Below are positions 4,573-60,075 of a DNA stretch of 64,000 nucleotides, one piece after another; within the stretch, counting starts at the first letter, position 1; the number at the start of each line of letters is the position of its first letter. Position numbers and translations under genes: made by a program. Location: IMG/VR virus record IMGVR_UViG_3300031993_000032. The stretch is one strand, 5' to 3'. The DNA is from a virus (taxonomy: Duplodnaviria > Heunggongvirae > Uroviricota > Caudoviricetes). The notes below the pieces were generated by a model. The model worked only from the letters and a program-made list of their open reading frames with translations. It was not told the origin of the DNA and ran no database searches.

Positions 4573-4581
4573 GGCAGCCTC

Positions 4582-12784: not shown

Positions 12785-13054
12785 CTAGCCCAGCCTCATG
12801 TAGATATCAAGGAATGCGTTTGCTGCGCACACGAGCTCGCTGATGGTCGTCACCTTTCCGGATGCCAGCAGCTTTCGACGGTTCGCCGTCAGATCGACGA
12901 GGTGGATGCGGTACTTGGTCTTGTCCTTGGTGAGCGTCGTACGGATCTCACGGTTATCGAGGGCACGCTTCGACGGTATCGCCTTGTGACAGACGTATTT
13001 GTCCTTCTCCTCATGGAAGTAGATGTTAAATGGTCCGATGTCCGATTCTTGCAT
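12785..13054 (-). CDS. hypothetical basic protein
   Basis: ORF track. Its RBS (GTAGGAGG) is formed by the last codons of the micropeptide immediately upstream. Confidence 0.55.
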   Translation of the reverse strand: MQESDIGPFNIYFHEEKDKYVCHKAIPSKRALDNREIRTTLTKDKTKYRIHLVDLTANRRKLLASGKVTTISELVCAANAFLDIYMRLG

Positions 13055-13055
13055 A

Positions 13056-13112
13056 TTAGCCTCCTACGCGCTTCTTGGACGGTTTGACGATTCTGCTCTG
13101 ATTCTTGGCCAT
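13056..13112 (-). CDS. 18-aa basic micropeptide MAKNQSRIVKPSKKRVGG (paralog b)
   Basis: ORF 13056..13250 trimmed to Met47. TAAGGAGA RBS. Terminator and a candidate promoter lie upstream. Confidence 0.35.
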   Translation of the reverse strand: MAKNQSRIVKPSKKRVGG

Positions 13113-13198
13113 TTGTGTCTCCTTATTATATATTGGTTGATTTGATTGCTTTGTAAAATATAAAAAGATGGGCGGCGACACCGTCGCCCATTTCTGTA

Positions 13199-13840
13199 TT
13201 AGTCGCAGTGGTCGAAGGACTTGCTTCTGCCGTCCCACGGATAGCACCACATGAAATTTCTATAGCGGAGCACTGCGGAGCCGTTGCCATCTGGGTCGAC
13301 CTTGATGGTGCGCTGTCCGTAAACAAAGCCGTCTGTGTCTACGAACCGTTCGCCGTCATATAAATTGCTATGATTCTCGAACTCGTCCAGCGGCACCGTA
13401 GTTCCAGAGAACATGTCGTCGTGCTTTTCCATCTGTTCCAGTATGCGGAGCGTCACGAACTGCTTAGTACGCTTGATGACCTTGAAGAAGGTCACCATAG
13501 CCATCGTAGCGCCCCAGCAGCTGTAGTAGATGTCGCCGACTTGGATGTCGCTCGCACTCGTGGGCGTGTGTGTGACGACGGCGTAGCCTGGATTCTCCTT
13601 GATGTAGGTGGCGACTGCTTCCTTTGTCGCTCTGATGTTCTTCGACCACGTGCCGAGAATGAACTCGTCGTCACTGTAGTACAAGTGCATCTTGTTGAGC
13701 TCTGCGTCGGTAGGGTCCTGGTCGTTGAGCTTCATAACGGCCTTTTTGATGCGCTTTTCTGCGACAGCCATCGACTGACGCATAATCATCATCTGTTCGA
13801 ACGTGGGCTTGGTTTCAATGAACTGGTCAACGGTCATCAT
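13199..13840 (-). CDS. hypothetical protein (213 aa)
   Basis: ORF track. AAGGAG RBS. Confidence 0.6.
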   Translation of the reverse strand: MMTVDQFIETKPTFEQMMIMRQSMAVAEKRIKKAVMKLNDQDPTDAELNKMHLYYSDDEFILGTWSKNIRATKEAVATYIKENPGYAVVTHTPTSASDIQVGDIYYSCWGATMAMVTFFKVIKRTKQFVTLRILEQMEKHDDMFSGTTVPLDEFENHSNLYDGERFVDTDGFVYGQRTIKVDPDGNGSAVLRYRNFMWCYPWDGRSKSFDHCD

Positions 13841-13911
13841 AGGTAACTCCTTGTTGCGGTTTGTATAATGGGAATAGATCGGCGAGGCAGTCCCGCCGAT
13901 CGATATCCAGT

Positions 13912-14166
13912 CTATACCAAGATTTCTATGTCGTCGGCGTCAGACTCTTTGTAAGCGTCCTTTACCGTCTGTGGGATATTGTCGTCGTCGGTGAGCCAGC
14001 AGCCAGGCAAATAAGAGTCGCCGCCACCTAACGCAATATCGCCACGGTTTATCTTGGTCTTTATCGGCGAGCTGTCGCCGTTGACGACCATCAAAAGTTC
14101 CTTTTCCGTGAGTTCCACGGTGGCGCTCAATCTGAACGTGATTGCATATTTTTTCTTGCGAGCCAT
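13912..14166 (-). CDS. hypothetical protein
   Basis: ORF track. AAGGAG RBS. Confidence 0.55.
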   Translation of the reverse strand: MARKKKYAITFRLSATVELTEKELLMVVNGDSSPIKTKINRGDIALGGGDSYLPGCWLTDDDNIPQTVKDAYKESDADDIEILV

Positions 14167-14283
14167 AAGTAATTCTCCTTGGTTTGTTCAAAGATAAAAT
14201 ATAACTAAATAACAGTCCCGTGTCAATACTGTCAGTCGATTTAGTTAATTTATAAACACGAAAAGGGGTTTGCGCCCCTAATT

Positions 14284-14730
14284 CTAGTGTTCCAGCGGGT
14301 CGTAGTCACGACCGTCATAGCAAATCACATACTCACCGATGGCGTAGATAACCGATTCCTTCAGCCCCTTGGTAGGCTTGGTCTTGTAGGTACGGCACTC
14401 GGTGACTTCCTTGATATGGTGGTCTACCACCTTACGCACACGGCGTTCGGAACGCCAACCGACAATGCCCACGAGCACGGCGTTGCAGCAGTAGCTATCA
14501 GGGTAGCTCAGGAAGTCGCCGTACTTCTTGTCTACCGTCTTGTAGAACCGGTCACGGCGGAGCTTGGTCAGGTTGTCCGTAGAGTCCACCTTGACCGTGA
14601 TGCCGTCACTACCGCTATGGTCACGTGTGTACGGAATCTGACGCATCCACCAATTCTTGAAGTCCGTTTCGGCATATCCAGGACGGAACTTAATCTTGTA
14701 CACTTCTTTTGCACTAACGTAATGACCCAT
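14284..14730 (-). CDS. hypothetical protein
   Basis: ORF track. AAGGAG RBS. Terminator downstream at 14250-14280. Confidence 0.6.
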   Translation of the reverse strand: MGHYVSAKEVYKIKFRPGYAETDFKNWWMRQIPYTRDHSGSDGITVKVDSTDNLTKLRRDRFYKTVDKKYGDFLSYPDSYCCNAVLVGIVGWRSERRVRKVVDHHIKEVTECRTYKTKPTKGLKESVIYAIGEYVICYDGRDYDPLEH

Positions 14731-14800
14731 ATTAACTCCTTAGTTGATTGTTGTTGGGGTTTGTATAGAAGGAATAGGACTGCTGGGCAGTCCCGTCCCT

Positions 14801-15244
14801 TTATTCCCAGTCGCCCAGCTTCTTTGCGAGCTGTCTGACCTTACCAATATCTCGGTCAATTTCAAAGGGGAACATCTGCGTATCTCTGTGCTCCCAGTCC
14901 CTCGGATAGCGTCGCAAGAATTCCCACATTTGTGCCACGTACTTGCCATACGGCTGTTCAATGCCCTTGATGCATTCTTCCATCGTGACTTTAAACGAAT
15001 CCAGCGGAAGCCTCTTGAGCGTGCGGAGCATAGCACCGCACTCCACAAAGAAGTCCAGCACCTTGTTCGCCTTGACCTTGTCGGCTTTGCCGTATGTACA
15101 ACAGTAATTATCTCGCATGCGGTTGCGTGTTGCGTTCACGTTCCATTCGTTTTGAAAAATCTTGTGCTCACGCTTGAAAATCTCATTCGAGTGGAATTCT
15201 TCACGGTGCTGCGGTATGTTGATGGTTTGTGTTACGAAAAACAT
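14801..15244 (-). CDS. hypothetical protein
   Basis: ORF track. AAGGAG RBS. Confidence 0.6.
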   Translation of the reverse strand: MFFVTQTINIPQHREEFHSNEIFKREHKIFQNEWNVNATRNRMRDNYCCTYGKADKVKANKVLDFFVECGAMLRTLKRLPLDSFKVTMEECIKGIEQPYGKYVAQMWEFLRRYPRDWEHRDTQMFPFEIDRDIGKVRQLAKKLGDWE

Positions 15245-15370
15245 GGTTAACTCCTTGTTGAGGTTACATAAAAATAATAAGACGCCGGAGCAGTCCCGCT
15301 GTCCAGTAGCCAGTCCGGCATGTCTGTGTAAAAGGAAATAGGGGACGGACGGGCGTCCGCCCCCAAGGAG

Positions 15371-15616
15371 CTAGATAGTAAAGCCCAATTCAAGCACCTT
15401 GCTCGTGGAGTTGTCTGAGTTGACTGCCAGCACACGCACAACAGAGTGCGGTGGAAGCCCCACATACTCGGCCACGGCCTTGTCAATGACCTTGCCAGTA
15501 ATTAAATCGTCAAGCTCGGCAAGCGGATAGTCAAATACAGTGCCGCCGGCAAGCCCACTGCCTTCAATGAAATTGTATGCGGCTTTGGAAAGGTTGATAA
15601 AGGTCTTCTGTAACAT
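15371..15616 (-). CDS. hypothetical protein
   Basis: ORF track. AAGGAG RBS. Confidence 0.55.
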   Translation of the reverse strand: MLQKTFINLSKAAYNFIEGSGLAGGTVFDYPLAELDDLITGKVIDKAVAEYVGLPPHSVVRVLAVNSDNSTSKVLELGFTI

Positions 15617-15683
15617 ATTCTAGCTCCTTGTTTGTATAGAATAAATATAACATACTGGCAGTCCCGTGAGGGAACAGCCAGTC

Positions 15684-15770
15684 TGTGGATAAAGTGTGAA
15701 TAATGTGGAATAAATTGTTTAGATCTTGTGGATAACTTGTTAATAAATATGTTGATATACTGTTAATAAA
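15684..15770. promoter_or_regulatory. DnaA-box cluster: 2 perfect TGTGGATAA (15684-15692, 15727-15735) plus 2 near-perfect boxes and a TGTTAATAAA direct repeat, in AT-rich DNA
   Basis: Read directly from the sequence. The consensus TTATCCACA/TGTGGATAA is established knowledge. Confidence 0.55.
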
Positions 15771-15798
15771 ACGTCAAAAGGGGATTTCGCCCCTTAAG

Positions 15799-16395
15799 TT
15801 ATCCTTTCTTTTGTGATTCTTCCCAGCGATTGAGAGCCGCACGACAAGCATCAGTTCCGTCGCCGCACCACTCTTCCAGATAGTCCCAGCCAGTAGAACC
15901 GATTCTGTTCTGGTATCTATCCAGATAGAATCCGCACATACCACCGAAGCAAGACAGCGTCGCCACAGCGGAATGAACCTTATGCTTGACCGTCTCCGTT
16001 TCCAGAGGGTCGTCGCCCTCAATGTCTTCAAGCGACTCACGACCCATCAGCACTCGGCAGCCGTAGTCGAAGAGGTCTTGTTCGTCGGTCGGACGACCGT
16101 CGCCGTCGCCAACCTTCTTAAGCGTCGCCTCGTTGCAGCACTTCGCCAGAGGCACGAGGAACAGTTCCACTTCGACCTTACCCTTGCAGCTCTTGTAGCC
16201 ACACAGACCGTAGAGGTCATCTGCATCCACCACGAGCTTGAACTCGACTGGCTTCTCGTCATCACCCAGATAGCACTTGTATGTAGACTTCGACCACAGC
16301 AACCAGCGAGAGCCGTCATTATAAGTGTTCTCCACGTGGTCATCGAGCTTGAAGTCGTCAATTACGGTGGACACATTTCCAAATTCGTATTTCAT
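15799..16395 (-). CDS. hypothetical Cys-rich acidic protein
   Basis: ORF track. AAGGAG RBS. Terminator downstream at 15775-15800. Confidence 0.6.
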   Translation of the reverse strand: MKYEFGNVSTVIDDFKLDDHVENTYNDGSRWLLWSKSTYKCYLGDDEKPVEFKLVVDADDLYGLCGYKSCKGKVEVELFLVPLAKCCNEATLKKVGDGDGRPTDEQDLFDYGCRVLMGRESLEDIEGDDPLETETVKHKVHSAVATLSCFGGMCGFYLDRYQNRIGSTGWDYLEEWCGDGTDACRAALNRWEESQKKG

Positions 16396-16520
16396 AGTAG
16401 CTCCTTGTTAGGTTTGTTTCTGTTACATAATCATAATACTCTGGATAGGCAGTCCCGTCACGATGCTGCCAGTCGCTACATATATGATCGATCGATACAG
16501 CCGGTTTGTAAAACGACAAA

Positions 16521-16551
16521 TAAAAAAGGGGCTTTCGCCCCTTTAAATTTC
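16521..16551. terminator. bidirectional intrinsic terminator AAAAAAGGGGCTTTCGCCCCTTTAAA
   Basis: Read directly from the sequence. Near-identical GGGGCTTTCGCCCC hairpins at 10945, 17265 and 21150. Confidence 0.6.
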
Positions 16552-17139
16552 CTCGCCGTCAAGCTTTATTATGTCATTGCAGAGCCAAGGAATTTCTTGA
16601 ATGACTCTTGCATAGACGGACACATTTATATTGCCCTCGTATTCTACGCCCTCAAGATACTTCTCCAGCATATATTCAATGCTTTGAGGTTGTTCCCTAT
16701 TATACTTCTCGTTGGCGTTGTTATTCGCCTCAAATACTTCGATGACAGCGTTCTCCAGCGTCGCCTTGATGGCCTCATAGATACCGTCAGCGGACACGAG
16801 GTCAGCCGTCGCCGTCGAATCGCCGTCGCCTGGGTCGGAGCAGCTTGGGTCAGACCAGCAGATAGTCGGCGCTTCATACCAGCCGTTGACCTCGACCGTG
16901 CCGATTTCAGCACACTCACACTCGCCCAGCAGAGAGGACAAGTCAGTGAGGACAGCCTTAAGCTCCTCTTCCGTGCCGTAGGGCTTGTAGCGTTCCAACA
17001 GCTCGTCATTGAACTGGACATTGACATAACCGTCGCCACCGTCACACTCTGCGCTTACCAGAGAGGCTTTGGCGTCGAACCCTTCGACAAATTTCAGATA
17101 CAGCGTGTTCTCTTCGTGGGTGTATTCTCTTCTTGACAT
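16543..17139 (-). CDS. hypothetical acidic protein
   Basis: ORF track. AAGGAG RBS. Bidirectional terminator at 16521-16551. Confidence 0.6.
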   Translation of the reverse strand: MSRREYTHEENTLYLKFVEGFDAKASLVSAECDGGDGYVNVQFNDELLERYKPYGTEEELKAVLTDLSSLLGECECAEIGTVEVNGWYEAPTICWSDPSCSDPGDGDSTATADLVSADGIYEAIKATLENAVIEVFEANNNANEKYNREQPQSIEYMLEKYLEGVEYEGNINVSVYARVIQEIPWLCNDIIKLDGEEI

Positions 17140-17288
17140 AGGTCATTCTCCTTGTGAGTGGTGGTGTTACATAGATACAATACCTGTCGAGGACAGTCCC
17201 GTCATGAGGCTGCCAGTCTTGGATATATTATCGCATAATCCTGGGAATTTGTCAATAGGAACATAAAAAAAGGGGCTTTCGCCCCAGT

Positions 17289-17438
17289 TTAACGGTGCCT
17301 GACACTATCAAGGAGCGCAAGCATATTGAACATCTGATGACCACGGAGAAAACCAAGTCTCGTGTCATTGTCCAGTGCTTGATATTCACTGATGGTCATG
17401 CCGTGCTGTTCTTTCAGATACTGTTCAAAGTTAGTCAT
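17289..17438 (-). CDS. small 49-aa ORF
   Basis: Below the ORF-track cut-off. AAGGGGA RBS. Tightly packed with two neighbouring small ORFs. Confidence 0.3.
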   Translation of the reverse strand: MTNFEQYLKEQHGMTISEYQALDNDTRLGFLRGHQMFNMLALLDSVRHR

Positions 17439-17450
17439 AGTATTATCCCC

Positions 17451-17594
17451 TTACCAGCCGTAAACCAAAGTTGCTTTGCCGAAGTGGGGCTGCAACGGTT
17501 TCTTTTGAACTTCTTTCTTTACGGTGTCGCTCACGGTTACGGTGACCGTGACGCGCTTACCGTCTACATTCATTTTGGTCGTCTGCGTAGCCAT
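17451..17594 (-). CDS. small 47-aa ORF
   Basis: AGGAGA RBS. Confidence 0.3.
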   Translation of the reverse strand: MATQTTKMNVDGKRVTVTVTVSDTVKKEVQKKPLQPHFGKATLVYGW

Positions 17595-17603
17595 AATTTT
17601 CTC

Positions 17604-17780
17604 CTAGCAGTCATAGCTCTTGTCTAACCCATAGATACTGGTCAGAACTCTGTTAGCGATTTCACGAGGCGTCTTGCCAGCATTGAACAGTCGCTTTGCA
17701 AAGGCGAAGTCGTCTCTCCCAAGATACTTGAAGCCAGCCAGCGAGCAGACCATCTTGACTTCTTTCCAAACCTTTAACAT
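17604..17780 (-). CDS. small 58-aa ORF
   Basis: CCAAGGAG RBS. Confidence 0.3.
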   Translation of the reverse strand: MLKVWKEVKMVCSLAGFKYLGRDDFAFAKRLFNAGKTPREIANRVLTSIYGLDKSYDC

Positions 17781-17819
17781 GTCATCTCCTTGGTTATGGG
17801 TGAAGGGAAAAGAAGAGCG

Positions 17820-18107
17820 TTACACGCTCTTCTTGAAGTCGGCGGCGATAGCGTCGCACATTGCGTCAAATTCAGCCTTGACTTCGTCGGCGTTCATCTC
17901 GTTCTTGGGAGCGAAGCCTGGAGTCGGCGAGCGGCTGTCAATGTTCAGCGTGTGTTCGCCAGCGACGAGCGACTTGAACTGTCCGTTGACGGAACTCACG
18001 GTAGTGTCAACGCCTACCATAAATTTGCACTGCTTGTTGGTGTCGCTGTTGAGCACGCAGATAGCGTACATATTGGCACGGAACGGCATGACTTGAATCT
18101 GGTACAT
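17820..18107 (-). CDS. hypothetical protein
   Basis: ORF track. AAGGAG RBS. Confidence 0.5.
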   Translation of the reverse strand: MYQIQVMPFRANMYAICVLNSDTNKQCKFMVGVDTTVSSVNGQFKSLVAGEHTLNIDSRSPTPGFAPKNEMNADEVKAEFDAMCDAIAADFKKSV

Positions 18108-18189
18108 TGGATAACTCCTTTTTTAATTTTGTTTGTTTGTATAGGATAAATAGGGGAACGGTGCAGTCCCGTTCCCCTTGGGTCAGTCG

Positions 18190-18525
18190 TTAGGCAATTG
18201 CCGCCTGGTATTTTTCCAACACGACATTTTCAATGTGTTCACGGAGCGCTCTCGTCGTAGGGTTCACGACGGTTCTGAACTCTTCGCCCTTATAGAAGGG
18301 GTCTACTGGGTAGCCGACAAATAATCCGTTCTCTCCGTCCATGATACGGAGCCCACGGATTACAAGCGAGTCATTCAGAACAACTTGTGCGACACCCTTG
18401 ATGTGTCCTAGGGTTGCCCCATCGCTGAACGGAAAAACTTGTACCGCAGTTACCACCATATCATAATGGGGCTTTTCAGATTCTTTTACTTCGTCCATAG
18501 TAGGAACTTTCTTTTTCGTAACCAT
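18190..18525 (-). CDS. spoVG: SpoVG-family protein
   Basis: Recognised the SpoVG signature by eye (VQVFPFSDGATLGHIKGVAQVVLNDSLVIRGLRIMDGENGLFVGYP). AGGAGA RBS. Confidence 0.65.
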   Translation of the reverse strand: MVTKKKVPTMDEVKESEKPHYDMVVTAVQVFPFSDGATLGHIKGVAQVVLNDSLVIRGLRIMDGENGLFVGYPVDPFYKGEEFRTVVNPTTRALREHIENVVLEKYQAAIA

Positions 18526-18658
18526 ATCGCTATCTCCTGGTTGATTGTTTCATATATAATAAATATCCTGGCAAGGCACGCCCGTCCGCACACTGTCAGT
18601 CCCTGGTGCCTGGAAAAGAAAATAAAAAGGTCTAGGGAATAATCCCTAGACCTTGCTC

Positions 18659-19147
18659 TTAAAAGAACCGCAATACGATTTCTCCGTTCGGCTTTCTGAC
18701 GATTTCGCCTATGACCTTTTCCTTCGGCTCGGTCTTGGGTGGAACCTTGACCGCAGTCGGCTTGACAGTCTGCACCGCTACGATGGGTGGGTCGCTCTCC
18801 GGTACGTGGTGCGGTGCGGAGCCACCACCGAAGCCCAACCCAGCCACGTAGACCATACCGCTGTGGGTCTGTCTGCGGTCATCGTCTGCGAGGACGATGG
18901 GCTTGGGGCGTCCGTTGGAGCCCCTCACGATGACCACGTCCGTGGGGTTCGGATGAGCCGTAGCCTGGATGAACTCGCCCATATCGGCATCGTCCATCTG
19001 CACGAGCACCTTGATGAGTGCTTCGTCAGTCGGATTCAGTGCCGTTGTCGGCTTGGGGAAGGTTGGCTTGTTGTACTTGCGGTTGCGTGTGTATCGCTTC
19101 TTGCCCTTGCTATAAGAGCCTTTAGGTGTTCCGAATCCCATAGTCAT
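18659..19147 (-). CDS. hypothetical protein, basic N-terminus, Pro-rich
   Basis: ORF track. AAGGAG RBS. The start is probably Met3. Confidence 0.5.
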   Translation of the reverse strand: MTMGFGTPKGSYSKGKKRYTRNRKYNKPTFPKPTTALNPTDEALIKVLVQMDDADMGEFIQATAHPNPTDVVIVRGSNGRPKPIVLADDDRRQTHSGMVYVAGLGFGGGSAPHHVPESDPPIVAVQTVKPTAVKVPPKTEPKEKVIGEIVRKPNGEIVLRFF

Positions 19148-19320
19148 CTCCTTGGTAATGGTTCAACTTCGTTACATAGACAGAATACACCTGGAGTGCA
19201 GTCCCGTAGCAATCATGCCAGTCGACCGCCCTGGTTCCGGATCACCGCTTCCTGGCGAGCCTTCGCCACCATGTCCCAGTAACTGGGGACAGTTTCAGAA
19301 AAACTATTTGCACTCTCATG

Positions 19321-19377
19321 TTACTTGCTCACTCTTTTGGTCGTTCGTGTGGTTACGATTCGATTTGATTTAGCCAT
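19321..19377 (-). CDS. 18-aa basic micropeptide MAKSNRIVTTRTTKRVSK (paralog c)
   Basis: AAGGAA RBS. Terminator hairpin upstream. Confidence 0.3.
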   Translation of the reverse strand: MAKSNRIVTTRTTKRVSK

Positions 19378-19509
19378 GGATGAATTCCTTTTTATAAAAT
19401 TGTGGGCTACTCGACGGCGTAGCCCATGCCGTTTTTATTTATTGTAGTGTGGCACTACACGCCACAACTACGGCGAATACGAGCGCCATAGCTATGATGT
19501 TGTGCCACT

Positions 19510-19791
19510 TCATTCTTTTAATTCCTTCGCCACGGCTTCAGCTGCTTCGACGGCTTTTTCTTTTGCCTTCTGTGTCACTGCTGCGGCGGCGTCAGAAGCT
19601 TTTTCTTTGGCGGCGTCAGCGGCTTCGGTAGCCTTCGCCTTCGCCGTGTCCGCTGCATTATCCAGCGCCGACTTTACGAAGTCTTTTGTAGCCGTCTTCA
19701 TAGCTTCGCCACTCTGCTTTACTTTTTCGTCGCATGCGGTGACCATAAAGGTGACCAGCACGATACCAGCGATAGATGCAATCTTTTTCAT
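19510..19791 (-). CDS. small lipoprotein (signal peptide + lipobox VTAC), Ala/Lys-rich
   Basis: ORF track. AAGGAAAA RBS. Confidence 0.6.
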   Translation of the reverse strand: MKKIASIAGIVLVTFMVTACDEKVKQSGEAMKTATKDFVKSALDNAADTAKAKATEAADAAKEKASDAAAAVTQKAKEKAVEAAEAVAKELKE

Positions 19792-19858
19792 TTTTATTTT
19801 CCTTTTTGGTTGAGAGTGAAAGGGGAGCGACCACCCAGCCGCTCCCCTAGGTTGATGG

Positions 19859-20023
19859 TTAGTGAATTTTTGACAGCAACGTGTTCACTATCAAAAGATA
19901 TATTACAAACACGCCACAGAAACCGACCACCGTCGGCAACGGCTTCGCACCGCTGAAAACCTTTACCGTGGTCAAGAGTGCCGCTATGGCAATAAGAATA
20001 AGTTTAATGCTGATTCCTTCCAT
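19859..20023 (-). CDS. small 54-aa hydrophobic (TM) peptide
   Basis: AAGAGGA RBS. Not in the ORF track. Confidence 0.35.
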   Translation of the reverse strand: MEGISIKLILIAIAALLTTVKVFSGAKPLPTVVGFCGVFVIYLLIVNTLLSKIH

Positions 20024-20073
20024 AATGTCCTCTTTAGTTAAGGTGAAAAAGTAAAGGGCTTACGCCCTTTACT

Positions 20074-21030
20074 TTATTTTTTGCTAGTGTAGATATAGTT
20101 TGCAGCCTTAATTGCAGCTCGACAAGCTTTTTCTACCATATTCTTATCGCTTCTGAGTGCCCTAGCCCATTCCTTCACGTAGGCTGCGCTCTGTTCGTCG
20201 CACTGTGGAGTATCAAATCCGTTATCGTGCATAATCGCACAAGAGCAAATTTCTGCTATCAATTCCTCGAAAGAATAAGAATTTTTGTCCATACGGTTCG
20301 CCAATTCCCTATTCAGTCGCTTGGAATGTCCAGTGCTATGTGCCAATTCGTGGAATACGTCAGAATAGTAGGCATTAGAATTTTTATAGCTATTCATAGG
20401 CGGTACGTGAATCTTATCCAAACTCGGAGAATATGCTGGAGTAGTATTCACGTGGTCAATGACCATACTCTCACGAGCTTGATAGTCCACAATAATCTTT
20501 TCTGCATCCGCAATCGGATTATTATGGTGTTCCTCGGCCTTTTTCGCAAACTTTAAAGGACAGTCTACCTCTCGGCCTACCTGCCATACAGTAGACGCTT
20601 TCAAGATAGGGAAATGCCCCTTAATAGGTTCACCATTTTCGTCGAGGCGAGGCTTTCCGTCCTCATCCTTCTTTGTGTACTCTACCATACTGTAGAAGTA
20701 CACTCGATGACCCTTGACCACTTTGCCGTTCTCGTCACGCTTGAAAGCTCCCCACACGGAACCATCCTTCACGTTCGTATGGTTGCGTTCGGCTACGCCG
20801 TTCACTGTGACGAACTCGCCTTCGGTGCATCCACCTAAAGCCAGCATCAGCGTGTTAAGGAACGAATATGACTTACCGTCGCTCTTGAGGAATCCGCTTT
20901 CGGTACGGTTCCACTGTTCACGCCACGGAACGCATCCCTTATCCAAACAAGCCAAAAACTTGTCCGTAATGTCCGCCATAATCTCGGCGGATACCTCGCT
21001 TGAGGTCTTTTTTGTTTTCGTGTATGCCAT
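20074..21030 (-). CDS. ardC: ArdC-like antirestriction protein (N-terminal ssDNA-binding domain + C-terminal HExxH zincin)
   Basis: CVPWREQW...SYSFLNTLML in the N-terminal domain. HELAHSTGH...NYI in the C-terminal domain. ACGGAGA RBS. The ORF-track TTG start trimmed to ATG. Confidence 0.7.
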   Translation of the reverse strand: MAYTKTKKTSSEVSAEIMADITDKFLACLDKGCVPWREQWNRTESGFLKSDGKSYSFLNTLMLALGGCTEGEFVTVNGVAERNHTNVKDGSVWGAFKRDENGKVVKGHRVYFYSMVEYTKKDEDGKPRLDENGEPIKGHFPILKASTVWQVGREVDCPLKFAKKAEEHHNNPIADAEKIIVDYQARESMVIDHVNTTPAYSPSLDKIHVPPMNSYKNSNAYYSDVFHELAHSTGHSKRLNRELANRMDKNSYSFEELIAEICSCAIMHDNGFDTPQCDEQSAAYVKEWARALRSDKNMVEKACRAAIKAANYIYTSKK

Positions 21031-21167
21031 AATCAATTCTCCGTTGAGTGGTGTTCCGTAAGCCCCATCGGCTTACATAATCTTAATAATCCCACGAGGC
21101 AGTCCCGTAGGCAGTGTGCCAGTCTGTCGCCGTATACGGCACACAATTGGGGCTTTCGCCCCTTTGT

Positions 21168-21494
21168 CTAAAAGTCTAAGCTCTCTATGAGTCCAAAAAA
21201 TAGCTCATCAATATAGGCCGTCTTATTTTCATTTGGTATATGGTCTAAGTCAAGTGTACGCCGTCCATCGGACGCATATACGTAATTTTCGCCATATTCC
21301 AAGTATATTTTGCGGTTATCCTTGAAATATTCATATGTGCGTGAGCCGTCTTTATGGTACGATATAATGACGGCGTGACGTTCACCAGCTACACAAGAGA
21401 TATTTTCCTCGCCAGCGTATTCTTCGCAAATTGGCAAATCATTTGCCAAAGACATAGCTCCGAGAGTCAAAATTGTTAAAATTTGTTTACGCAT
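21168..21494 (-). CDS. secreted protein (signal peptide)
   Basis: ORF 21168..21506 trimmed to Met5. Confidence 0.5.
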   Translation of the reverse strand: MRKQILTILTLGAMSLANDLPICEEYAGEENISCVAGERHAVIISYHKDGSRTYEYFKDNRKIYLEYGENYVYASDGRRTLDLDHIPNENKTAYIDELFFGLIESLDF

Positions 21495-21702
21495 TGCTTG
21501 CTCCAAGGTTTAAGGTTTAACATAGATTTTTAAAAACATTTGATGCAGTCCCGTATCAACTGTATCAGTCACAGACACACTAAATCAAATAAAAAGGCGG
21601 AGCACCTGGGGTAAGGTGCTCCGCCGTCCCGTCCACCACTACGGAGCATAACTGTTTACCACCTAAGTGATAAAAGGTTATGCCCCCTATTGGGGGCGAA
21701 TT

Positions 21703-22530
21703 TTAATTATTTTCGGCTTCTTGGGCTTCAGCGAGCTTGGCAAGCTTTTCGTAATAATTATCACGAATCTTTGCAAGTTCAGCCAAATCCCAATCTTCGT
21801 CGGTTGTGAACTTAATCGGTTCGCCCTTGATGGTGACCACCGCATTTTCAATTTTTATATTCTGATACGGAGCCGAAGCCATCGTCAGCGTCTTGCCGTC
21901 TGGGCCAAGCTTGTCAGAACCATCTTCGTTTTTCTGAATAATTTCATAGCCGTCTTTGTCGGTTATGGTATAGTCAGTGTTCAGACCGCAAAGCTTGTTA
22001 AAAACTTTTGTGTCCTTGATGACTTGACAAATTTCTTCTTTCTTGACATTCTTGCCGTCAGCCGTCCAAATCGTCTTCGGCGTGCCAGCTCGATATGCCA
22101 CGAAATACATTGTGCTGAGGTCATCTTTCACATAGATAAGTTCGGAGTAGACTGGGAACATACCACGATTCTTGATAGCCTTGGTATACGTCCCTTCTAC
22201 TCCGCCACGCTTCATAATGGCTTCGTTCTTGCGGACATAGTTGAGCTTGGCTCCCAAAGTCACCACATAGTCGCTTGTCTTATGGACGACCTTGAAGGGG
22301 TTAGGCGTGCCCTTGGCGAGCGGAGCGACACCAGCCTTCGCCAAATTGGCGTTGAAAGTGTCAATACGCTTCTGAAGGTCAGAGTCGGTCAACCCTTGTT
22401 CCTTGTCAGCCTTGGAAAGCGACGGCATACGAGCCTTCTGCACACATTCCACATCAGCGTCATAGTGGAAGGACGCAAACGAGTTAGAGAGCTTCTTGAG
22501 AAGCTCAAGGTTCAGTTTCTTGATAGCCAT
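21703..22530 (-). CDS. hypothetical protein (275 aa)
   Basis: ORF 21703..22542 trimmed to Met5 after a TGGAG RBS. Last gene of the cassette-driven array. Confidence 0.55.
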   Translation of the reverse strand: MAIKKLNLELLKKLSNSFASFHYDADVECVQKARMPSLSKADKEQGLTDSDLQKRIDTFNANLAKAGVAPLAKGTPNPFKVVHKTSDYVVTLGAKLNYVRKNEAIMKRGGVEGTYTKAIKNRGMFPVYSELIYVKDDLSTMYFVAYRAGTPKTIWTADGKNVKKEEICQVIKDTKVFNKLCGLNTDYTITDKDGYEIIQKNEDGSDKLGPDGKTLTMASAPYQNIKIENAVVTIKGEPIKFTTDEDWDLAELAKIRDNYYEKLAKLAEAQEAENN

Positions 22531-22700
22531 AATAGACTCCATTGGATAGTGGTGGTGGTGGTGCGGTTATGCCCTAACCGCTAGGTTGTAAGCCCCATTG
22601 GCTTACATAGCTATCATAGGACGGCGAGTCAGTCCCGTGCAAGTTCTGCCAGTCCGAAACGCCGTAAGGGGTTCTGTAGGGGAATAGGTTGCCGAGTGTT

Positions 22701-55149: not shown

Positions 55150-55500
55150 TCACTTGTCATTGCTTACGATTACCGGATTGTGCCCAATAACTCGTACTTG
55201 CCGTAATTCCTTCAGACTGACATCTATCGATAAGTCAGACGTGGCATGCTTGTCGCCGCAGTAACCCTTGATATACCGATATGGCGTGGCCGTAAACGAT
55301 ATGATGTCTCCTGGAGACATACGAGCGAACGCATTGCACCATTTCACCCAGATATGATCGCATAGTACATGGTCTTGCTCGTCACGCAGCATAATGAGCA
55401 ACGCATTCCTATCCTTGCCGGATCGACCAGCACGGATGTAGGTCGCATTATACTTGTGAGGCGTCAGCGTAGCACCAAGATTCCTAATTCCATTCGTCAT
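55150..55500 (-). CDS. hypothetical protein
   Basis: ORF 55150..55608, start uncertain (Met37 chosen). Confidence 0.4.
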   Translation of the reverse strand: MTNGIRNLGATLTPHKYNATYIRAGRSGKDRNALLIMLRDEQDHVLCDHIWVKWCNAFARMSPGDIISFTATPYRYIKGYCGDKHATSDLSIDVSLKELRQVRVIGHNPVIVSNDK

Positions 55501-55669
55501 TGTCGGCGAGTTCACTGAGTCGACTGTAGGACTCGTCGCCGAATGACAGTTCTTGGGTTTCTTCGACATCTTCGGGCTCCTCAATAATAGATTCATCTTG
55601 CTCTTCAATGAGCTCGTTCTCGTTTTCAGCTTCCAGTTCGTTATACTCGATCGGTTTCTTCTTTGCCAT
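55484..55669 (-). CDS. small highly acidic protein (61 aa)
   Basis: ORF track. GAGGT RBS. Confidence 0.5.
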   Translation of the reverse strand: MAKKKPIEYNELEAENENELIEEQDESIIEEPEDVEETQELSFGDESYSRLSELADNDEWN

Positions 55670-56117
55670 TTTGCTTACCTCGTGCGTCGTCTCGCATAGC
55701 CGTCAGAATTGACGTTACGGTTTCATTCTTGTTTATCACTAGCAAAGAAACTAAGTATTCCAGATCGAAGACAAACAAGTACTTTCCGTTTTCTTCATAG
55801 GCAAATTCGTCTGTATCGGTAACATACTGCATACCGAAATCGGTCATTTCCTTCGACAAGGTAGCCATGAACTCCTTGTCATCGATCTTCGCCTTGACCG
55901 CCAGCGTATGGGCAACATTCTTCATCATTTCACCCATAATTGCCCGTACCTTGGCCAAGTCATACGTCTTGCTGACATCGTTGGTCAACCAAGGAACGCT
56001 GAACTCGATGTTCGGTTCGCACTCACGGTAGACCATCAAGTTACGGTCTTCGTCATAGTCGAACAAGTTATTCTCGAACAGCCGTATCACGCTGCTGCTA
56101 TTTATCATCGTCGCCAT
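55641..56117 (-). CDS. hypothetical protein (158 aa); its RBS is supplied by the IS right-end terminal sequence
   Basis: ORF track. GAGGCAGGA lies 11 nt upstream of the ATG. Confidence 0.5.
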   Translation of the reverse strand: MATMINSSSVIRLFENNLFDYDEDRNLMVYRECEPNIEFSVPWLTNDVSKTYDLAKVRAIMGEMMKNVAHTLAVKAKIDDKEFMATLSKEMTDFGMQYVTDTDEFAYEENGKYLFVFDLEYLVSLLVINKNETVTSILTAMRDDARGKQNGKEETDRV

Positions 56118-56124: not shown

Positions 56125-57591
56125 CTGCCTCATAAAATGTATATAAAGGTATAGATGACCTAAATATAGCAATTTACGGTTGCGTTAGCAACTTGGTTCC
56201 ATAGACGATTAAAGAAATCGTCCACCATAGCCATCCTACCATCTCTGGTAAGTAGGCGATGAGCATCAACCTCGGTAGTTTCACCAGTTCCCGAAAGGGA
56301 AGAGGCCAGAGCTACCAAGTCCGCTGGTGTGAATTTCCGACGGGCAATGTCGGTATTAAAACGATTATTTAGTTCAATGAACAAGGCTTCGGCAAGGATA
56401 TTGATGGCGGCATTGGTATCCCTATCGATAACCAGACCACATTTCTCGCAGACATACTCTCGTTCGGACAATGAAAGTTTTTCTTTCACATGCCCACAAC
56501 CGGAACATTTCTTTGACGACGGGAAGAACCGTCCGACTTTTAAGAGCAATGTTCCGTACTTGGCACTCTTGTATTCTAGGAACCTACGAATCATGCCGAA
56601 TCCGCAGTCAGAAATGACCGACGCCAACTTGTGGTTGGTCATCATTCCCTTTACATTCAAGTCCTCTATGGCGACAACCATGTTATGCTTAACGATTTCT
56701 GTCGTCGCCTTGTGTATCAAGTCCTTTCTGAAGTTCTTGATATAGGTATTCGTCTTATTAAACGTCTTCTTGATATCCTTGTAATGTACTGAATTGTACT
56801 TCCGGCGGGACATCATCCTCTGATATCTCTTTAGTCGCTTATAATGCCTCTTGTTGATATGCTCGTTAGCGACACATTCGCCGGTAGACAGCTGCATCAG
56901 CGTCTTAACGCCCATATCTATGCCGACAAGACCGTTAACATCTGTTCCGTACAAACGTTGGGTGTCATCGTAAGTATAGGATATCGAGATGTACCAACGG
57001 TCGTTGCTTCCTTTGGATATAACGAAGTTGTTTATCTTACCGGATAGGCATTCGTACCGTACTGGCTCCGCCAGTCTGACTGGAAGCTTGATTAACGGCA
57101 ACTTGATATGAATAGGATCGACAATCCTAGCATGGTCGTTCTCTATGTAGAACGAACGCTTAGACTTGTATTTCTTTCGCTTGGGAAAGCCGAACAGATC
57201 TGGATTCTCGTAATGCCGTTTCTTGGCTAGAACGAAGTTCTTGATGGCTTGATTCATAGAGCCTTTGGGACTCTCGTACATCCAGTCAGTCTTTTGTTCG
57301 TTGAATTCCTTGCGGAGTTCCGCACACGTCACCGATTTCTGGCCAGCAGCTTTCTTGGCAAACCAGGTATCCCTAGCCCAGTTATATGCGTAGCGAGCAC
57401 AACCGCATGCTCGGTTCAATGCGCTTGCTGTCTTGCTATCGACTATCAACATTATTTTCTGGGCTGTACTTATCATACACACAAGAAATGCCCCGGTAAC
57501 GCCTATTGTGGTATTTAACGTTACCGGAGCACCGAAAACTCTTCAATTAGAACAAGAAATACCACTAACTTATTCTATAACGAAGTTTATA
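56125..57591 (-). mobile_element. IS200/IS605-family tnpB-only element, copy 3 (inverted relative to copy 1, about 10 percent diverged)
   Basis: Ends mapped by aligning this copy to 24357-25837. Compensatory left-end hairpin GCTCCGGTAACG/CGTTACCGGGGC versus GCCCTGAAGAC/GTCTTCGGGGC. Confidence 0.65.
56160..57476 (-). CDS. tnpB: TnpB (OrfB_IS605), 438 aa
   Basis: About 90 percent identical to the 24474..25790 product. Trimmed to the ATG matching the copy-1 start. Confidence 0.85.
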   Translation of the reverse strand: MISTAQKIMLIVDSKTASALNRACGCARYAYNWARDTWFAKKAAGQKSVTCAELRKEFNEQKTDWMYESPKGSMNQAIKNFVLAKKRHYENPDLFGFPKRKKYKSKRSFYIENDHARIVDPIHIKLPLIKLPVRLAEPVRYECLSGKINNFVISKGSNDRWYISISYTYDDTQRLYGTDVNGLVGIDMGVKTLMQLSTGECVANEHINKRHYKRLKRYQRMMSRRKYNSVHYKDIKKTFNKTNTYIKNFRKDLIHKATTEIVKHNMVVAIEDLNVKGMMTNHKLASVISDCGFGMIRRFLEYKSAKYGTLLLKVGRFFPSSKKCSGCGHVKEKLSLSEREYVCEKCGLVIDRDTNAAINILAEALFIELNNRFNTDIARRKFTPADLVALASSLSGTGETTEVDAHRLLTRDGRMAMVDDFFNRLWNQVANATVNCYI

Positions 57592-57672
57592 GCATTCGCA
57601 TCTTGAATTCATGCGGTGTTCATGAAAAGGCTGTTATTTTTTATTTACAATTCAATACATTCATATATTGTT

Positions 57673-58155
57673 TCAGCTACTAGATACAATCTCCAAATTG
57701 CTAAGTTCGTTCTCGATACGCTTTCCATCAAATATACATTCATCACGATTTTCACGCAAGGCAAGTTCCTTCGCCAGCGTACGGATATTCACCATCTGCG
57801 CCTTCATGTCGAACAAGTCCGGAACCTTCTTATTATATGCGTTTTCGTAATCGGTGCACAGCTTGCCCATAAGGGGCCCGTAGATACATTCGATTGACCG
57901 CGTGTACTGCCGGTGAAGCTCGTCGATCTTCTTCTCGAATGCACGCAGCTGGGCAGCAATCTTGATATAGCCAACAACAGAATTTTCATCCATTGTGTAG
58001 TGAACTCTTGGAAGATCAATTTTCACATCGGACTGAATCTCGTTGTCCGGCGTATCGTCGTTATCAAACTTCATGTCAAGCGAAATCGACAACGGCGTAA
58101 TCTTCTTCCGCTTTGCAGCACGGATCAGCTGCAGCAAGTCATTGTCATTTCTCAT
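57673..58155 (-). CDS. hypothetical protein (160 aa)
   Basis: ORF track. AAAGGAAG RBS. ATGA coupling to the sigma gene. Confidence 0.55.
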   Translation of the reverse strand: MRNDNDLLQLIRAAKRKKITPLSISLDMKFDNDDTPDNEIQSDVKIDLPRVHYTMDENSVVGYIKIAAQLRAFEKKIDELHRQYTRSIECIYGPLMGKLCTDYENAYNKKVPDLFDMKAQMVNIRTLAKELALRENRDECIFDGKRIENELSNLEIVSSS

Positions 58156-58892
58156 ACAGCTTCCTTTCGCAGATATTTAGCCTCTGCGACCATATTTTCG
58201 TATTGAGGGCTCTTGCGGATGCGGTTTAATGCTGCGTTACGAATCTGGCGAACTCGTTCGTGGGAGACATTCATGTCAGAACCAACGCTACGCAATGTTA
58301 CCGAATCGTCGCCATATACGAACAGACGGTTAAGCACTTCACGCTCATTGTCGCTGACCATCGACAAGAAACGTTCAGTCAACTTAGCATTCTCGTCATT
58401 TGCGGTTCCTTCTTCGGTATCTTCTCCGCTACGCAGCAGATCGCCGATGGAACGCTTTCCATCCAGCTTCATGTCAGTGGACAGCATCGCTACCGAAGCC
58501 TTGGTCGTGTCCTTGGATTTCAAGATATTTTCCGGTCGATGAATCAGAAGGCTTGCGAATGACGCCTTCTTCATTTCATTCAGTGCCTTTGCGGAGAAGT
58601 ATGTATAAAATGCCGTGCCACGGCTCGGATCGAATTCCTTGACTGCCTTGGGCAATCCGAACACTGCGGAATTCACCAATTCGTCAATCGTCAGGTTGTA
58701 TGCACTCGTAGACAGCTGTTTTGCCATCTTGTACAAGAACGGAATGTACTTGTAGATCAGCCGGGTGGTGGCAGCACGGTCACCTTCCTTGGCACGTTGG
58801 ATGTAGATCATTTCCACATCACGGTTTGGTATAGCTTGAATTGAACGACGATATTCGTCTCTGAACCTGTTACGAAGAACGGTTGATGTCAT
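58152..58892 (-). CDS. phage-encoded sigma-70-family RNA polymerase sigma factor (regions 2 and 4 present)
   Basis: Region 2: RLIYKYIPFLYKMAK...NSAVFGLPKAVKEFDPSRGTAFYTYFSAKALNEM. Region 4.2: SHERVRQIRNAALNRIRK. AACAGGA RBS. Confidence 0.8.
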   Translation of the reverse strand: MTSTVLRNRFRDEYRRSIQAIPNRDVEMIYIQRAKEGDRAATTRLIYKYIPFLYKMAKQLSTSAYNLTIDELVNSAVFGLPKAVKEFDPSRGTAFYTYFSAKALNEMKKASFASLLIHRPENILKSKDTTKASVAMLSTDMKLDGKRSIGDLLRSGEDTEEGTANDENAKLTERFLSMVSDNEREVLNRLFVYGDDSVTLRSVGSDMNVSHERVRQIRNAALNRIRKSPQYENMVAEAKYLRKEAV

Positions 58893-58917
58893 GTGTGTCC
58901 TGTTTATGGTGTGTTGG

Positions 58918-59193
58918 TTAATAAGAAAACGTATGTTCCCGATAGCTGGCGGTGTGCTTTTTCTTCGCTCGGATACGGTCGATCAAGATCGATGCGGCGC
59001 ATGCAACCGAGTCGTCCGCTTCCTTTGGTTCGGCTGTCAGCATCAGCTGCGCTTGCAAGTTCTGCAATGCATGGAAGACGGCCTCGTCGATGGTCTCGTC
59101 ATTATTCTCATAATACTTGCCCAAGTCCAGCTCTGCGTAAACCGTGTCGCCGTCCTTTACCGTCAATTTTTCTTCCGAGTGAGTAATAACCAT
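58918..59193 (-). CDS. hypothetical protein adjacent to the sigma gene (anti-sigma or modulator candidate)
   Basis: ORF track. TAATG coupling. Confidence 0.5.
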   Translation of the reverse strand: MVITHSEEKLTVKDGDTVYAELDLGKYYENNDETIDEAVFHALQNLQAQLMLTAEPKEADDSVACAASILIDRIRAKKKHTASYREHTFSY

Positions 59194-59456
59194 TAGAACA
59201 TCGCCTTGTAGAATTCCGGATCGCTGAGTGAACTCTGTACATTGCCTTCAATACGACCAGTCAGAACAACCTTGTTCATCATGTCGTCGACGTACTTGGT
59301 TTCTTCTGCGGACAGATGGATAACGTCGCACTTGTATGCGACAAACATCACCAGCAGCTTGTCATTAGGGTACTCGGCAACGATTCCGATATTCGTAGCT
59401 ACGCCAAGCAGCTCCTCGGTAAACCGTTCCCAGATGTCATCAACCATTCCGTACAT
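59193..59456 (-). CDS. hypothetical protein (87 aa)
   Basis: ORF 59193..59504 trimmed to Met17 after an AAGGAAG RBS. Confidence 0.45.
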   Translation of the reverse strand: MYGMVDDIWERFTEELLGVATNIGIVAEYPNDKLLVMFVAYKCDVIHLSAEETKYVDDMMNKVVLTGRIEGNVQSSLSDPEFYKAMF

Positions 59457-59727
59457 TCGCTTCTTCCTTAGGATCGAGATTAGTATATTCGATGTCGGTA
59501 ACATATCCCGGTGACGAGATTCCGAACTTGTCCGGATCCAGCCAGAGATGCCATACCGATATTTTCAAGTGTTCGTTCCGTGTATGCAGCCGGTATATTA
59601 CCTTGTTCATCTTGTGAGTGCGGTCTCGCTGTCCACGACTCGGAACAAATCCTTTCGATATTAAGAACTTGTTTAGTAAGCTGAACGGCTTGTCCATGAA
59701 CATCATAACGGATTCTCGATTCGTCAT
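59440..59727 (-). CDS. hypothetical basic protein
   Basis: ORF track. AGAGGGA RBS. ATGA coupling. Confidence 0.5.
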   Translation of the reverse strand: MTNRESVMMFMDKPFSLLNKFLISKGFVPSRGQRDRTHKMNKVIYRLHTRNEHLKISVWHLWLDPDKFGISSPGYVTDIEYTNLDPKEEANVRNG

Positions 59728-59960
59728 AGTCCCTCTACTAGTAGGTATTGTTTGAGTGCTTTAAGAGTGTCGACGGCAGCCTTCTTCTCGTACTGCAGCG
59801 CATCGGTGACCTGAGCCTCCACGATTGTCTCGTAGTTCTCGTAGCCATCGTCAAGAGCAACCCGTTCGTCCCTCAAGTGGAGCGCACGACCGTCTTGTAT
59901 GCTTTTCGTAAGAATTTCGACTTGATTATCTATGGTTTTAATTAGACTTTCGTCAGACAT
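59724..59960 (-). CDS. hypothetical acidic protein, first gene of the sigma operon
   Basis: ATG 6 nt after the TATATT of promoter 59967-59995. The TTG start given by the ORF track is discarded. Confidence 0.5.
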   Translation of the reverse strand: MSDESLIKTIDNQVEILTKSIQDGRALHLRDERVALDDGYENYETIVEAQVTDALQYEKKAAVDTLKALKQYLLVEGL

Positions 59961-59966
59961 ATTCAA

Positions 59967-59995
59967 AATATAGCAATTAATTTACTTGTTTGTAA
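59967..59995 (-). promoter_or_regulatory. sigma-70-type promoter TTACAA-N17-TATATT, leaderless, driving the sigma-factor operon
   Basis: Read directly from the sequence. Confidence 0.55.
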
Positions 59996-60075
59996 CAGGT
60001 TTATTAAATTTTACATGCAAAAAGACGGCGGTCTTTCGACCACCGTCCCAGGACACAAACCAACAAAAAACTCGA

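Follow-up and report, generated by a model that had tools for sequence, protein, structure and literature searches.

Sigma factors are the classic timing device of phages that carry no polymerase of their own, and it is textbook knowledge that they are made early from host-type promoters (SPO1 gp28, T4 gp55). In the gp28 (gp33/34) cascade of SPO1, a sigma factor of about 220-250 amino acids is produced early from promoters of the host sigma-A type, replaces the host sigma on the core enzyme and gives access to a new promoter class. SPO1 also has a host-takeover module of arrays of small genes, each with a strong promoter of its own. Such sigmas are already known in jumbo phages. All 'group 2' jumbo phages, which are without their own RNA polymerase (RNAP), carry genes for sigma factors with which the catalytic subunits of the host are recruited, and both minimal and RpoD-like versions occur (Iyer et al. 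2021, PMC7824862). Here we describe a sigma factor gene and its operon in a 64,000-nt stretch of viral DNA, IMGVR_UViG_3300031993_000032 (the window), which is part of a huge uncultured rumen phage; genomes of this clade measure 350-460 kb. All coordinates refer to the window, in which the sigma operon and an array of small-gene cassettes lie on the minus strand. The locus is a new divergent phage sigma of known type, strongly conserved in uncultured rumen phages of this size. As in SPO1, the sigma is small, its gene stands behind a putative host-type promoter and an array of small genes is present. There is no detectable sequence relationship to SPO1 beyond the sigma-70 superfamily. On balance, we think it probable that the locus is an early transcription-switch operon of the clade.

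The sigma gene and the predicted domains of its product, the latter taken from an AlphaFold2 (AF2) model, are as follows.

Positions 58152..58892, minus strand: sigma-70-family sigma factor, 246 amino acids, fifth gene of the operon, assigned from Pfam, NCBIfam, PHROG and fold.
Residues 4-117: sigma2 helices (domain about 20-117).
Residues 118-148: disordered linker of 31 amino acids, aligned to region 3.2.
Residues 149-226: sigma4.
Residues 229-244: extra C-terminal helix.

There is hardly any doubt that 58152..58892 encodes a genuine sigma-70-family protein. The initial annotation had recognised sigma regions 2 and 4.2 in it, and this was borne out by Pfam, in which Sigma70_r2 (PF04542) scored 35.9 bits (cut-off 24) and Sigma70_r4 (PF04545) 36 bits (cut-off 24.1). 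The protein also matched PHROG 351, 'RNA polymerase sigma factor', at 1e-27. The superfamily-level 'sigma70-ECF' model of NCBIfam (TIGR02937; ECF, extracytoplasmic function) was matched in a single stretch, residues 43-227, with 55.8 bits against a cut-off of 42.9. This pass would support the two-domain architecture, not ECF membership proper. The SigK model TIGR02846 was colinear with the protein (residues 24-227 against model positions 32-224 of 227) and gave 46.6 bits against an equivalog cut-off of 298.65; the equivalog test for SigK/SigE, NF004471, was not passed (41 bits, cut-off 252). The NCBIfam models of RpoS, RpoH, FliA and SigBFG matched in two separate stretches. When a profile of 22 homologues was used, residues 26-100 aligned to region 2 of RpoS (RpoS 80-152), including the core-binding motif GL.kAv.kFDp.rG followed by F.TY, and residues 117-228 aligned to RpoS 207-321, that is, region 3.1/3.2 through 4.2. 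Profile alignment to PDB also placed sigma4 on the region 4 structures of RpoD and SigA. The AF2 model had a predicted local distance difference test (pLDDT) score of 75, with the helices of residues 39-117 at 85-90, and its best Foldseek matches were sigmaS, sigma32, sigB and sigA.

No Sigma70_r3 domain was found by Pfam at E<=0.1, and the 31-residue linker between sigma2 and sigma4 is too short for a sigma3 domain; the protein therefore lacks sigma3. Its length of only 246 amino acids, which the initial annotation had thought remarkable, is normal for a sigma of this kind. An HRPE segment in the linker was considered as the H455/E458 pair of region 3.0 and rejected, as the profile alignment puts it in region 3.1/3.2. 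The same architecture of sigma2, linker and sigma4 without sigma3 is found in Bacillus SigE/SigK and in ECF sigmas. Unlike SigE/SigK, the phage protein has no pro-sequence and falls far under the SigK equivalog cut-off. It differs from ECF sigmas in that no anti-sigma partner can be recognised, an ECF-type GGAAC/CGT promoter is absent and its region 4.2 is like that of groups 1 and 2 and RpoH. T4 gp55 has only a sigma2-like domain, whereas the rumen phage sigma has a well-conserved sigma4. Compared with the sigmas of 'group 2' jumbo phages, it is neither the minimal type with one helix-turn-helix nor the RpoD-like type with sigma3.

Among the 22 homologues, KYIPFLYKMA and SHERxRQ were invariant, and TLRSVG...SHERVRQ was invariant or nearly so. 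Purifying selection on the sigma is evident in these alignments. The region 4.2 helix, SHERVRQ, is close to the sigma-70/RpoS/RpoH type, T/S-R/A-E-R-I/V-R-Q (TRERIRQ in sigma-70). Metagenomes yielded 23 sigma homologues with 50-93% identity, nearly all of 246 amino acids, on contigs of up to 440 kb. The relatives in IMG/VR came from an alignment-based scan, and a single-sequence scan of IMG/VR gave none; the nearest IMG/VR relative outside the clade (L061) has 29% identity. Megablast of 57-61.5 kb against INPHARED phages gave no match, and tblastn of the sigma against INPHARED returned only RpoS or cyanophage sigmas with 23-26% identity. The sigma appears to form a small family, so far restricted to huge rumen phages. 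No account of this phage clade or of its motifs turned up in literature searches.

The region upstream of the operon contains three elements.

Positions 60019..60049, minus strand: intrinsic terminator hairpin, GGGACGGTGGTC-GAAA-GACCGCCGTC followed by TTTTT, which insulates the operon from the upstream small-gene unit.
Positions 60006..60015, minus strand: A/T-rich element TGTAAAATTT, about 13 nt upstream of the -35.
Positions 59967..59996, minus strand: predicted operon promoter with a weak -35, an extended -10 TGC (59975-59973) and a -10 TATATT (59972-59967).

The consensus fold of the terminator in seven lineages had 12 pairs, three of them with compensatory changes, and a free energy of -22.6 kcal/mol. 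The sequence GTAAAATTT was invariant in eight related loci, and TGTAAAATTT occurs as a single exact copy in the window; this element may be UP-element-like or an operator controlling sigma expression. The -35 can be read as TTACAA (59995-59990) with a 17-nt spacer or as GTTACA with an 18-nt spacer, and it is poorly conserved, with only ACA kept among the eight loci. The motif TGCTATATT was invariant upstream of the operon in seven of the eight; the remaining one, L009, has TACTATATT (TAC). A generic sigma-70 consensus scan of 54-64 kb found 17 sites where 17.3 were expected. Because the generic scan is at chance level, the promoter call rests on the excess of the 9-mer TGNTATATT (12 found, 1.8 expected) and on conservation in related phages. 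The initial annotation had read TTACAA-N17-TATATT with an ATG 6 nt downstream, and this can be read directly from the DNA, the ATG being at 59960. Its description of the promoter as host-type also agrees with our analysis, which finds a near-consensus promoter with an extended -10 behind a terminator.

A start codon, ATG or GTG, follows TATATT by 6-7 nt in six of the eight loci, by 9 nt in one and by 19 nt in L005. In the window, CTATATT occurs 23 times, usually with TTGACA or TTGCCA 17 bp upstream, and CTATAAT once. Nine of the 23 sites had the ATG of an open reading frame (ORF) of at least 50 amino acids 6-9 nt downstream (background 3.6%, P = 5e-8), and this enrichment holds in six relatives. 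The nine sites, given by the C of CTATATT, are 23867, 34137, 38929, 40756, 48469, 50373, 50586, 59973 and 61494. Their genes include a CCA-adding enzyme, Thg1 and a mutase, and several relatives use GTG at the leaderless position. The mutase probably starts at the leaderless ATG 48456 rather than at the upstream GTG 48789. Putatively leaderless genes are thus spread widely over this phage, in contrast to the array genes, which use strong AAGGAG Shine-Dalgarno sequences (SDs). The operon mRNA is most likely leaderless, to judge from this spacing, and we are fairly confident in calling its promoter an early, host-type, leaderless one.

Two considerations bear on which polymerase reads this promoter. 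The sigma gene cannot depend only on itself, so the host holoenzyme presumably must read it. The TG of an extended -10 is read by sigma region 3.0 in known holoenzyme structures. Since the conserved TG extension needs region 3.0, which the phage sigma does not have, the TGCTATATT class appears to be host-type. Under a different arrangement, the TGCTATATT promoters would be the phage sigma's own, the operon would be autoregulated and the cassettes would be read by something else. The striking uniformity of CTATATT in the counts above would suit this, and the TTGACA/TTGCCA -35 elements of the class agree with a region 4.2 of housekeeping-like type. However, early phage promoters that depend on host sigma often show the same uniformity, region 3.0 is missing, and the sigma gene would have no switch-on unless the protein were injected with the DNA. 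We know of no precedent for injection of a sigma protein with phage DNA. We give this arrangement very little credence.

The operon occurs in at least 7 lineages of the clade and had the same gene order in eight related loci (L001, L003, L005, L007, L009, L054, L073 and L074), namely genes for 78, 95, 87 and 91 amino acids, sigma, 160, 158 and about 150 amino acids. Most of them overlap or abut. The genes other than sigma are as follows.

Positions 59724..59960, minus strand: first gene, 78 amino acids, orthologues 56-96% identical.
Positions 59440..59727, minus strand: second gene, 95 amino acids, overlapping the first by 4 nt, without a family match.
Positions 59193..59456, minus strand: third gene, most likely 87 amino acids from the ATG at 59456, without a family match.
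Positions 58918..59193, minus strand: fourth gene, 91 amino acids, the anti-sigma candidate of the initial annotation.
Positions 57673..58155, minus strand: gene of 160 amino acids, with an ATGA overlap with the sigma stop codon that implies translational coupling.
Positions 55150..56117, minus strand: last two operon genes, 158 amino acids (56117..55641) and 139-152 amino acids (55608..55150).
Positions 55114-55144: bidirectional terminator hairpin at the end of the operon.

The start of the third gene was placed at 59456 rather than 59504 because its product has 84-87 amino acids in all relatives. This map departs from the initial annotation in two respects: four small genes precede sigma instead of three, and the locus does not end at 57673, as the operon of the relatives runs on into the last two genes listed. 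Identity to the window proteins, with the near-identical L001 set aside, was 54-62% for sigma, 36-51% for the 160-amino-acid protein and 28-42% for the 91-amino-acid protein, whose gene is the fastest-evolving of the operon. The last two proteins are the most conserved, with 60-73% identity, or up to 92% when L001 is included.

The seven partner proteins had no match in Pfam, NCBIfam or PHROG. A profile of the 91-amino-acid protein from eight lineages matched only designed helical repeat proteins in PDB, which is taken to be a compositional effect. Its AF2 model, built on an alignment of four near-identical sequences, has three strands and two long helices; with this weak model (pLDDT 66), Foldseek gave no match at E<2. 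Neither comparison thus showed a resemblance of the 91-amino-acid protein to known anti-sigma factors. The 160-amino-acid protein had no PDB profile match and, by inspection, no HxxxCxxC motif of the ZAS type. By its position, the 160-amino-acid gene is a better candidate for a sigma partner than the 91-amino-acid gene. Nothing significant was obtained when profiles of the 158- and 152-amino-acid proteins were compared with PDB, and no MotA-, AsiA- or gp33-like protein was found among the operon proteins by sequence or fold. The last gene (152 amino acids, 55150-55608) gave weak profile matches to the OB-fold of initiation factor 1 (IF-1), with E values of 0.05-0.07 for four IF-1 sequences and ~1 for another, and had no Pfam support. 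This resemblance is intriguing beside leaderless mRNAs, yet it is below significance.

From these features the following course of events can be proposed. Host RNAP with its primary sigma would recognise the UP-like element, the weak -35 and the invariant extended -10 TGCTATATT just behind the terminator. Judging from geometry and conservation, transcription would begin on the first start codon, or no more than 2-3 nt from it, and give a leaderless polycistronic mRNA. The fifth gene encodes a compact sigma of sigma2, a region-3.2-like linker and sigma4, in which the core-binding region 2.2 is preserved and region 4.2 is housekeeping-like. This sigma would bind the host core and divert the polymerase to phage promoters that are poorly read by the host holoenzyme. 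At least one of the seven conserved proteins encoded with it in the operon would probably assist in this diversion.

The cassette array is the sole visible candidate target class for the sigma, and the 'master regulator of the cassette regulon' of the initial annotation is a hypothesis.

Positions 1..22650, minus strand: candidate target regulon of ~35 cassettes, each with one gene and the layout GACTGG-N12-GGGACTGCC-N9-TATT-N5-TATACAA...AAGGAG-ATG; the box is flanked by a stem.

With one mismatch allowed, GGGACTGCC was found 47 times against 9.4 expected, nearly all on the minus strand within 0-22.6 kb and one per gene. Motif scans upheld the earlier statement that the 0-22.6 kb array uses cassettes and the rest sigma-70-like promoters, the two classes being spatially separate. 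Homologous arrays were found on a 348 kb IMG/VR contig (UViG_3300037512_000782), on ENA scaffold_898 and on two contigs of 405-440 kb. The box differs by lineage: the window has GGGACTGCC, two lineages have mostly GGGGCTGCC, another two have GGGGCTG[GA]CC, and all variants retain nTGnCn. The spacing is regular, with ACTG starting 17 nt before the box and TATN 11 nt after GGGRCTG. The motif TAYAYAA was found in 122 cassettes from five genomes, and in 115 of these it follows GGGRCTG at exactly 20 nt. The cassettes have neither a canonical -35 nor a TG extension. In L076 and L078 the GGGGCTG[GA]CC box goes with an ACGGAGG SD, and in the window, L077 and the IMG/VR loci GGG[AG]CTGCC goes with AAGGAG; the TAT and TAYAYAA distances are fixed.

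The array also contains a tRNA-like gene at 6929-7054 on the minus strand (Rfam RF00005, 37.9 bits), which has 48-nt and 18-nt insertions and was missed by ARAGORN. A cassette box precedes it and the SD of the following gene comes after it; a counterpart lies at 4310-4430 of L027, an IMG/VR relative.

In all five genomes, the minimum folding energy of the box region is about 5 kcal/mol lower than that of flank-shuffled controls. The stem arms around the box vary in sequence yet stay complementary, and a T-rich stretch follows the 3' arm. These properties would be expected if the cassette elements worked chiefly at the RNA level, forming hairpins for termination or processing whose loop is bound by a protein; the array would then be no sigma regulon, and the targets of the sigma would lie elsewhere. 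However, the rigid spacing from the box to TAT and TAYAYAA and the near-invariant TAT are promoter-like, a loop of 9-12 nt with a T-tract interrupted by A makes a poor intrinsic terminator, and hairpin and promoter functions can coexist. We regard an action mainly on RNA as improbable. Two further candidates were rejected. A sigma-54 -24/-12 promoter would need a GG/GC pair at the right spacing, which is absent in the window lineage, and in an N4-type hairpin promoter the 9-12 nt loop would be too distant from any plausible start.

If the cassettes are promoters, their elements can be placed in two registers. The one proposed in the initial annotation (register A) has canonical geometry, with a CTGnCn -35 in the box carrying a GGGR 5' extension, a 17-bp spacer and a TATACA -10, all read directly by sigma4 and sigma2 of the phage protein. 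Such a register is possible. The 20-nt spacing puts CTG at -35..-33 with a 17-bp spacer, and nTGnCn, present in every box variant, matches the invariant E-R-x-R-Q helix. The -10 lacks TG and T(-7), as would be fitting for a sigma that has no sigma3. There is also a likeness between TATACAA and the SigE consensus CATACA(A/C)T (bioRxiv 10.1101/2020.04.13.040188), and the phage sigma is colinear with SigK models. The SDs speak against this register: between a third and a half of the cassettes have an SD that begins 3-4 nt past TATACAA, so that a start about 7 nt after TATACA would fall in or past the SD in these. As such a start would cut the SD, the start site of register A is disfavoured. Likewise, TA at +21/+22 is missing in 25-50% of the cassettes while TAT at +12 is kept, and the tRNA-like gene occupies the position of TATACAA. 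Direct reading in the canonical register therefore seems unlikely to us.

In the other register (register B), TATTnT is taken as the -10 and the A of TATACAA as the start, which puts the box at -30..-22. This register is the better supported of the two. TAT at +12..+14 is the best-conserved A/T element; in an IMG/VR relative, A(+13) carries ~1.8 bits and A(+22) ~0.6 bits. In the sub-array of L038, TAT[GTC] is kept and TATACAA is lost. The 5' end of the tRNA-like gene lies exactly at +24 from the box, behind a cassette with CATT and without TATACAA. In register B the distance from the -10 to the start is 6 nt, the same as in the leaderless class.

Like the rumen phage, T4 combines several promoter classes with a phage sigma, and if TATTnT is the -10 the cassettes resemble the MotA-box middle promoters of T4. 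The likeness consists of a TAT -10, no -35 and a conserved 9-bp box about 10 bp upstream, a geometry which in T4 is activator-dependent. By analogy, the host primary-sigma holoenzyme could read TATTnT with the aid of a phage activator, possibly with a sigma4-remodelling partner, on GGGRCTGCC (-30..-22) and GACTGG (-48..-43), and the phage sigma would serve an unseen late or structural class. The conservation of TAT and the loss of TATACAA in L038 favour a TATTnT -10, the position of the SD and the tRNA-like gene at +24 fit the start site, and the spacing of 9-11 bp from box to -10 resembles the MotA-box geometry. Furthermore, the window holds no structural genes, so a late class would not be visible there. 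On the other side, MotA- and AsiA-like proteins were not detected in the operon, TATTnT often has no T at -7, and the sigma is the sole recognisable transcription factor next to the array. We consider a T4-middle-like scheme the main rival to a need for the sigma at the cassettes, a possibility to be taken seriously, though a doubtful one.

A more novel arrangement would be a new kind of holoenzyme, in which the sigma together with one or more co-operonic partners reads GACTGG (-48..-43) and GGGRCTGCC (-30..-22) with a minimal TAT -10. The terminator hairpin of the preceding gene would contain the proximal box in its loop, the geometry of sigma and promoter would be non-canonical, and more than 100 insulated single-gene units would be switched on from one early factor. 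We think this unlikely. In the reading that we prefer, the early transcription switch, direct reading of the box by sigma4 is doubtful because the box is so close to TATTnT. The sigma may provide just the -10 recognition and leave the box to a partner, or its targets may be a late class in an unseen part of the genome. We give somewhat less than even credence to the sigma being required for cassette transcription, a credence divided between register A, in which it reads the cassettes directly, and register B, in which it reads the -10 and is aided by a partner.

The case for this requirement includes the co-occurrence of sigma and cassettes on the same contig in three of three testable genomes, namely the window, UViG_3300037512_000782 (sigma 54% identical) and ENA scaffold_898 (62%). 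Several points weigh against it. The three genomes are syntenic members of a single phage family, and their co-occurrences are phylogenetically non-independent. From lineage to lineage the box drifts, yet the recognition helix does not change. Co-variation of the box with region 4.2 was looked for and was not found, the recognition helix being invariant. A near-housekeeping SHERVRQ would predict a TTG-type -35 and not a novel 9-mer. In register B the box is 9-11 bp from the -10, so that the canonical sigma4/sigma2 pair cannot span the two. At the operon promoter, the leaderless starts are deduced from spacing alone, and the gap in L005 is 19 nt. Finally, only 64 kb of a genome of 350-460 kb was seen, and other sigmas, polymerases, activators or a late promoter class may lie beyond it. 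The SPO1 precedent also differs, as the small-gene array of SPO1 is early and read by host sigma, the opposite of the assignment made for the rumen phage in the initial annotation.

The locus adds to the known phage sigmas an unusual combination: a sigma that lacks sigma3, has a housekeeping-like region 4.2 and carries an additional helix at its C-terminus, together with seven fixed partner genes, a presumably leaderless early promoter and a large stereotyped cassette regulon alongside. If the sigma or its operon reads the cassettes, the phage would offer a promoter/sigma pair that is compact, orthogonal and equipped with its own terminators, and the promoter geometry would be new. If the sigma does not read them, it is one more divergent phage sigma. 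The most interesting object is the cassette regulon and its reader, for which the sigma operon is the leading suspect, not proven. Promoter maps make the question of the cassette reader testable either way.

Pfam recognised no transcription protein besides sigma among the scanned ORFs of the window, and no structural genes were found in its 64 kb. The 839- and 622-amino-acid proteins adjoining the operon had no PDB or Pfam similarity, and no RNAP subunit was recognised there by these comparisons. Auxiliary genes of the window encode nicotinate phosphoribosyltransferase (NAPRTase), a CCA-adding/polyA polymerase, UDP-galactopyranose mutase, flotillin, Thg1 and LemA, and Pfam also detected HD, isochorismatase and cytidylyltransferase domains. 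Sets of auxiliary genes lie at 37659-42215 and 49469-50359. One, for tRNA repair or maturation, comprises the CCA-adding enzyme and the Thg1-like gene; another, for NAD salvage, comprises NAPRTase (40869-42215) and the isochorismatase-like and cytidylyltransferase-like domains. These two domains and the HD domain, which may belong with the tRNA set, were seen only in a batch Pfam scan of the non-array ORFs. ARAGORN found no tRNAs.

Samples of the relatives appear to be cattle-rumen assemblies, and homologues of the array genes were found on contigs of 405-460 kb. The sigma occurs in rumen metagenome-assembled genomes binned as Prevotella and as Fibrobacter; these bins contradict each other, which probably reflects mis-binning. 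The use of SDs and of TTGACA/TATATT promoters would argue against a Bacteroidota host. GTDB genomes contained no TnpB relatives, hence no host pointer came from the transposon-related element described below.

Positions 56125..57703 (boundaries approximate), minus strand: IS200/IS605-type element of ~1.58 kb, with TnpB at 56160..57482.

The TnpB matched OrfB_IS605 and the Cas12f1-like TNB family of Pfam, with hits at 7e-18 and 2.5e-22. The element splits the operon in the window, where it is inserted in the last codons of the 160-amino-acid gene and supplies the last ~10 of them; L001 has the empty site. The 64 kb contain four TnpB (IS605 OrfB) genes, at 56125-57703 (minus), 24474-25790 (plus), 43512-45248 (plus) and 63672-64000 (minus). 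The second of these is 90% identical to the operon copy and has both ends in common with it. The right end of the element carries TTGCTA-N17-TATATT with TGC, plus an SD for the next gene. Compared with its sister, the operon copy has a CGC to TGC change just before the right end, which creates the phage TGCTATATT motif ahead of the downstream gene. From the comparison of the two copies, this change may be a compensatory fix for a polar insertion. The copy at 24474-25790 adjoins a block of six co-oriented plus-strand genes (26000-28000) with a G+C content of 0.557 against ~0.47 and a strongly positive GC skew, which may be a foreign insert.

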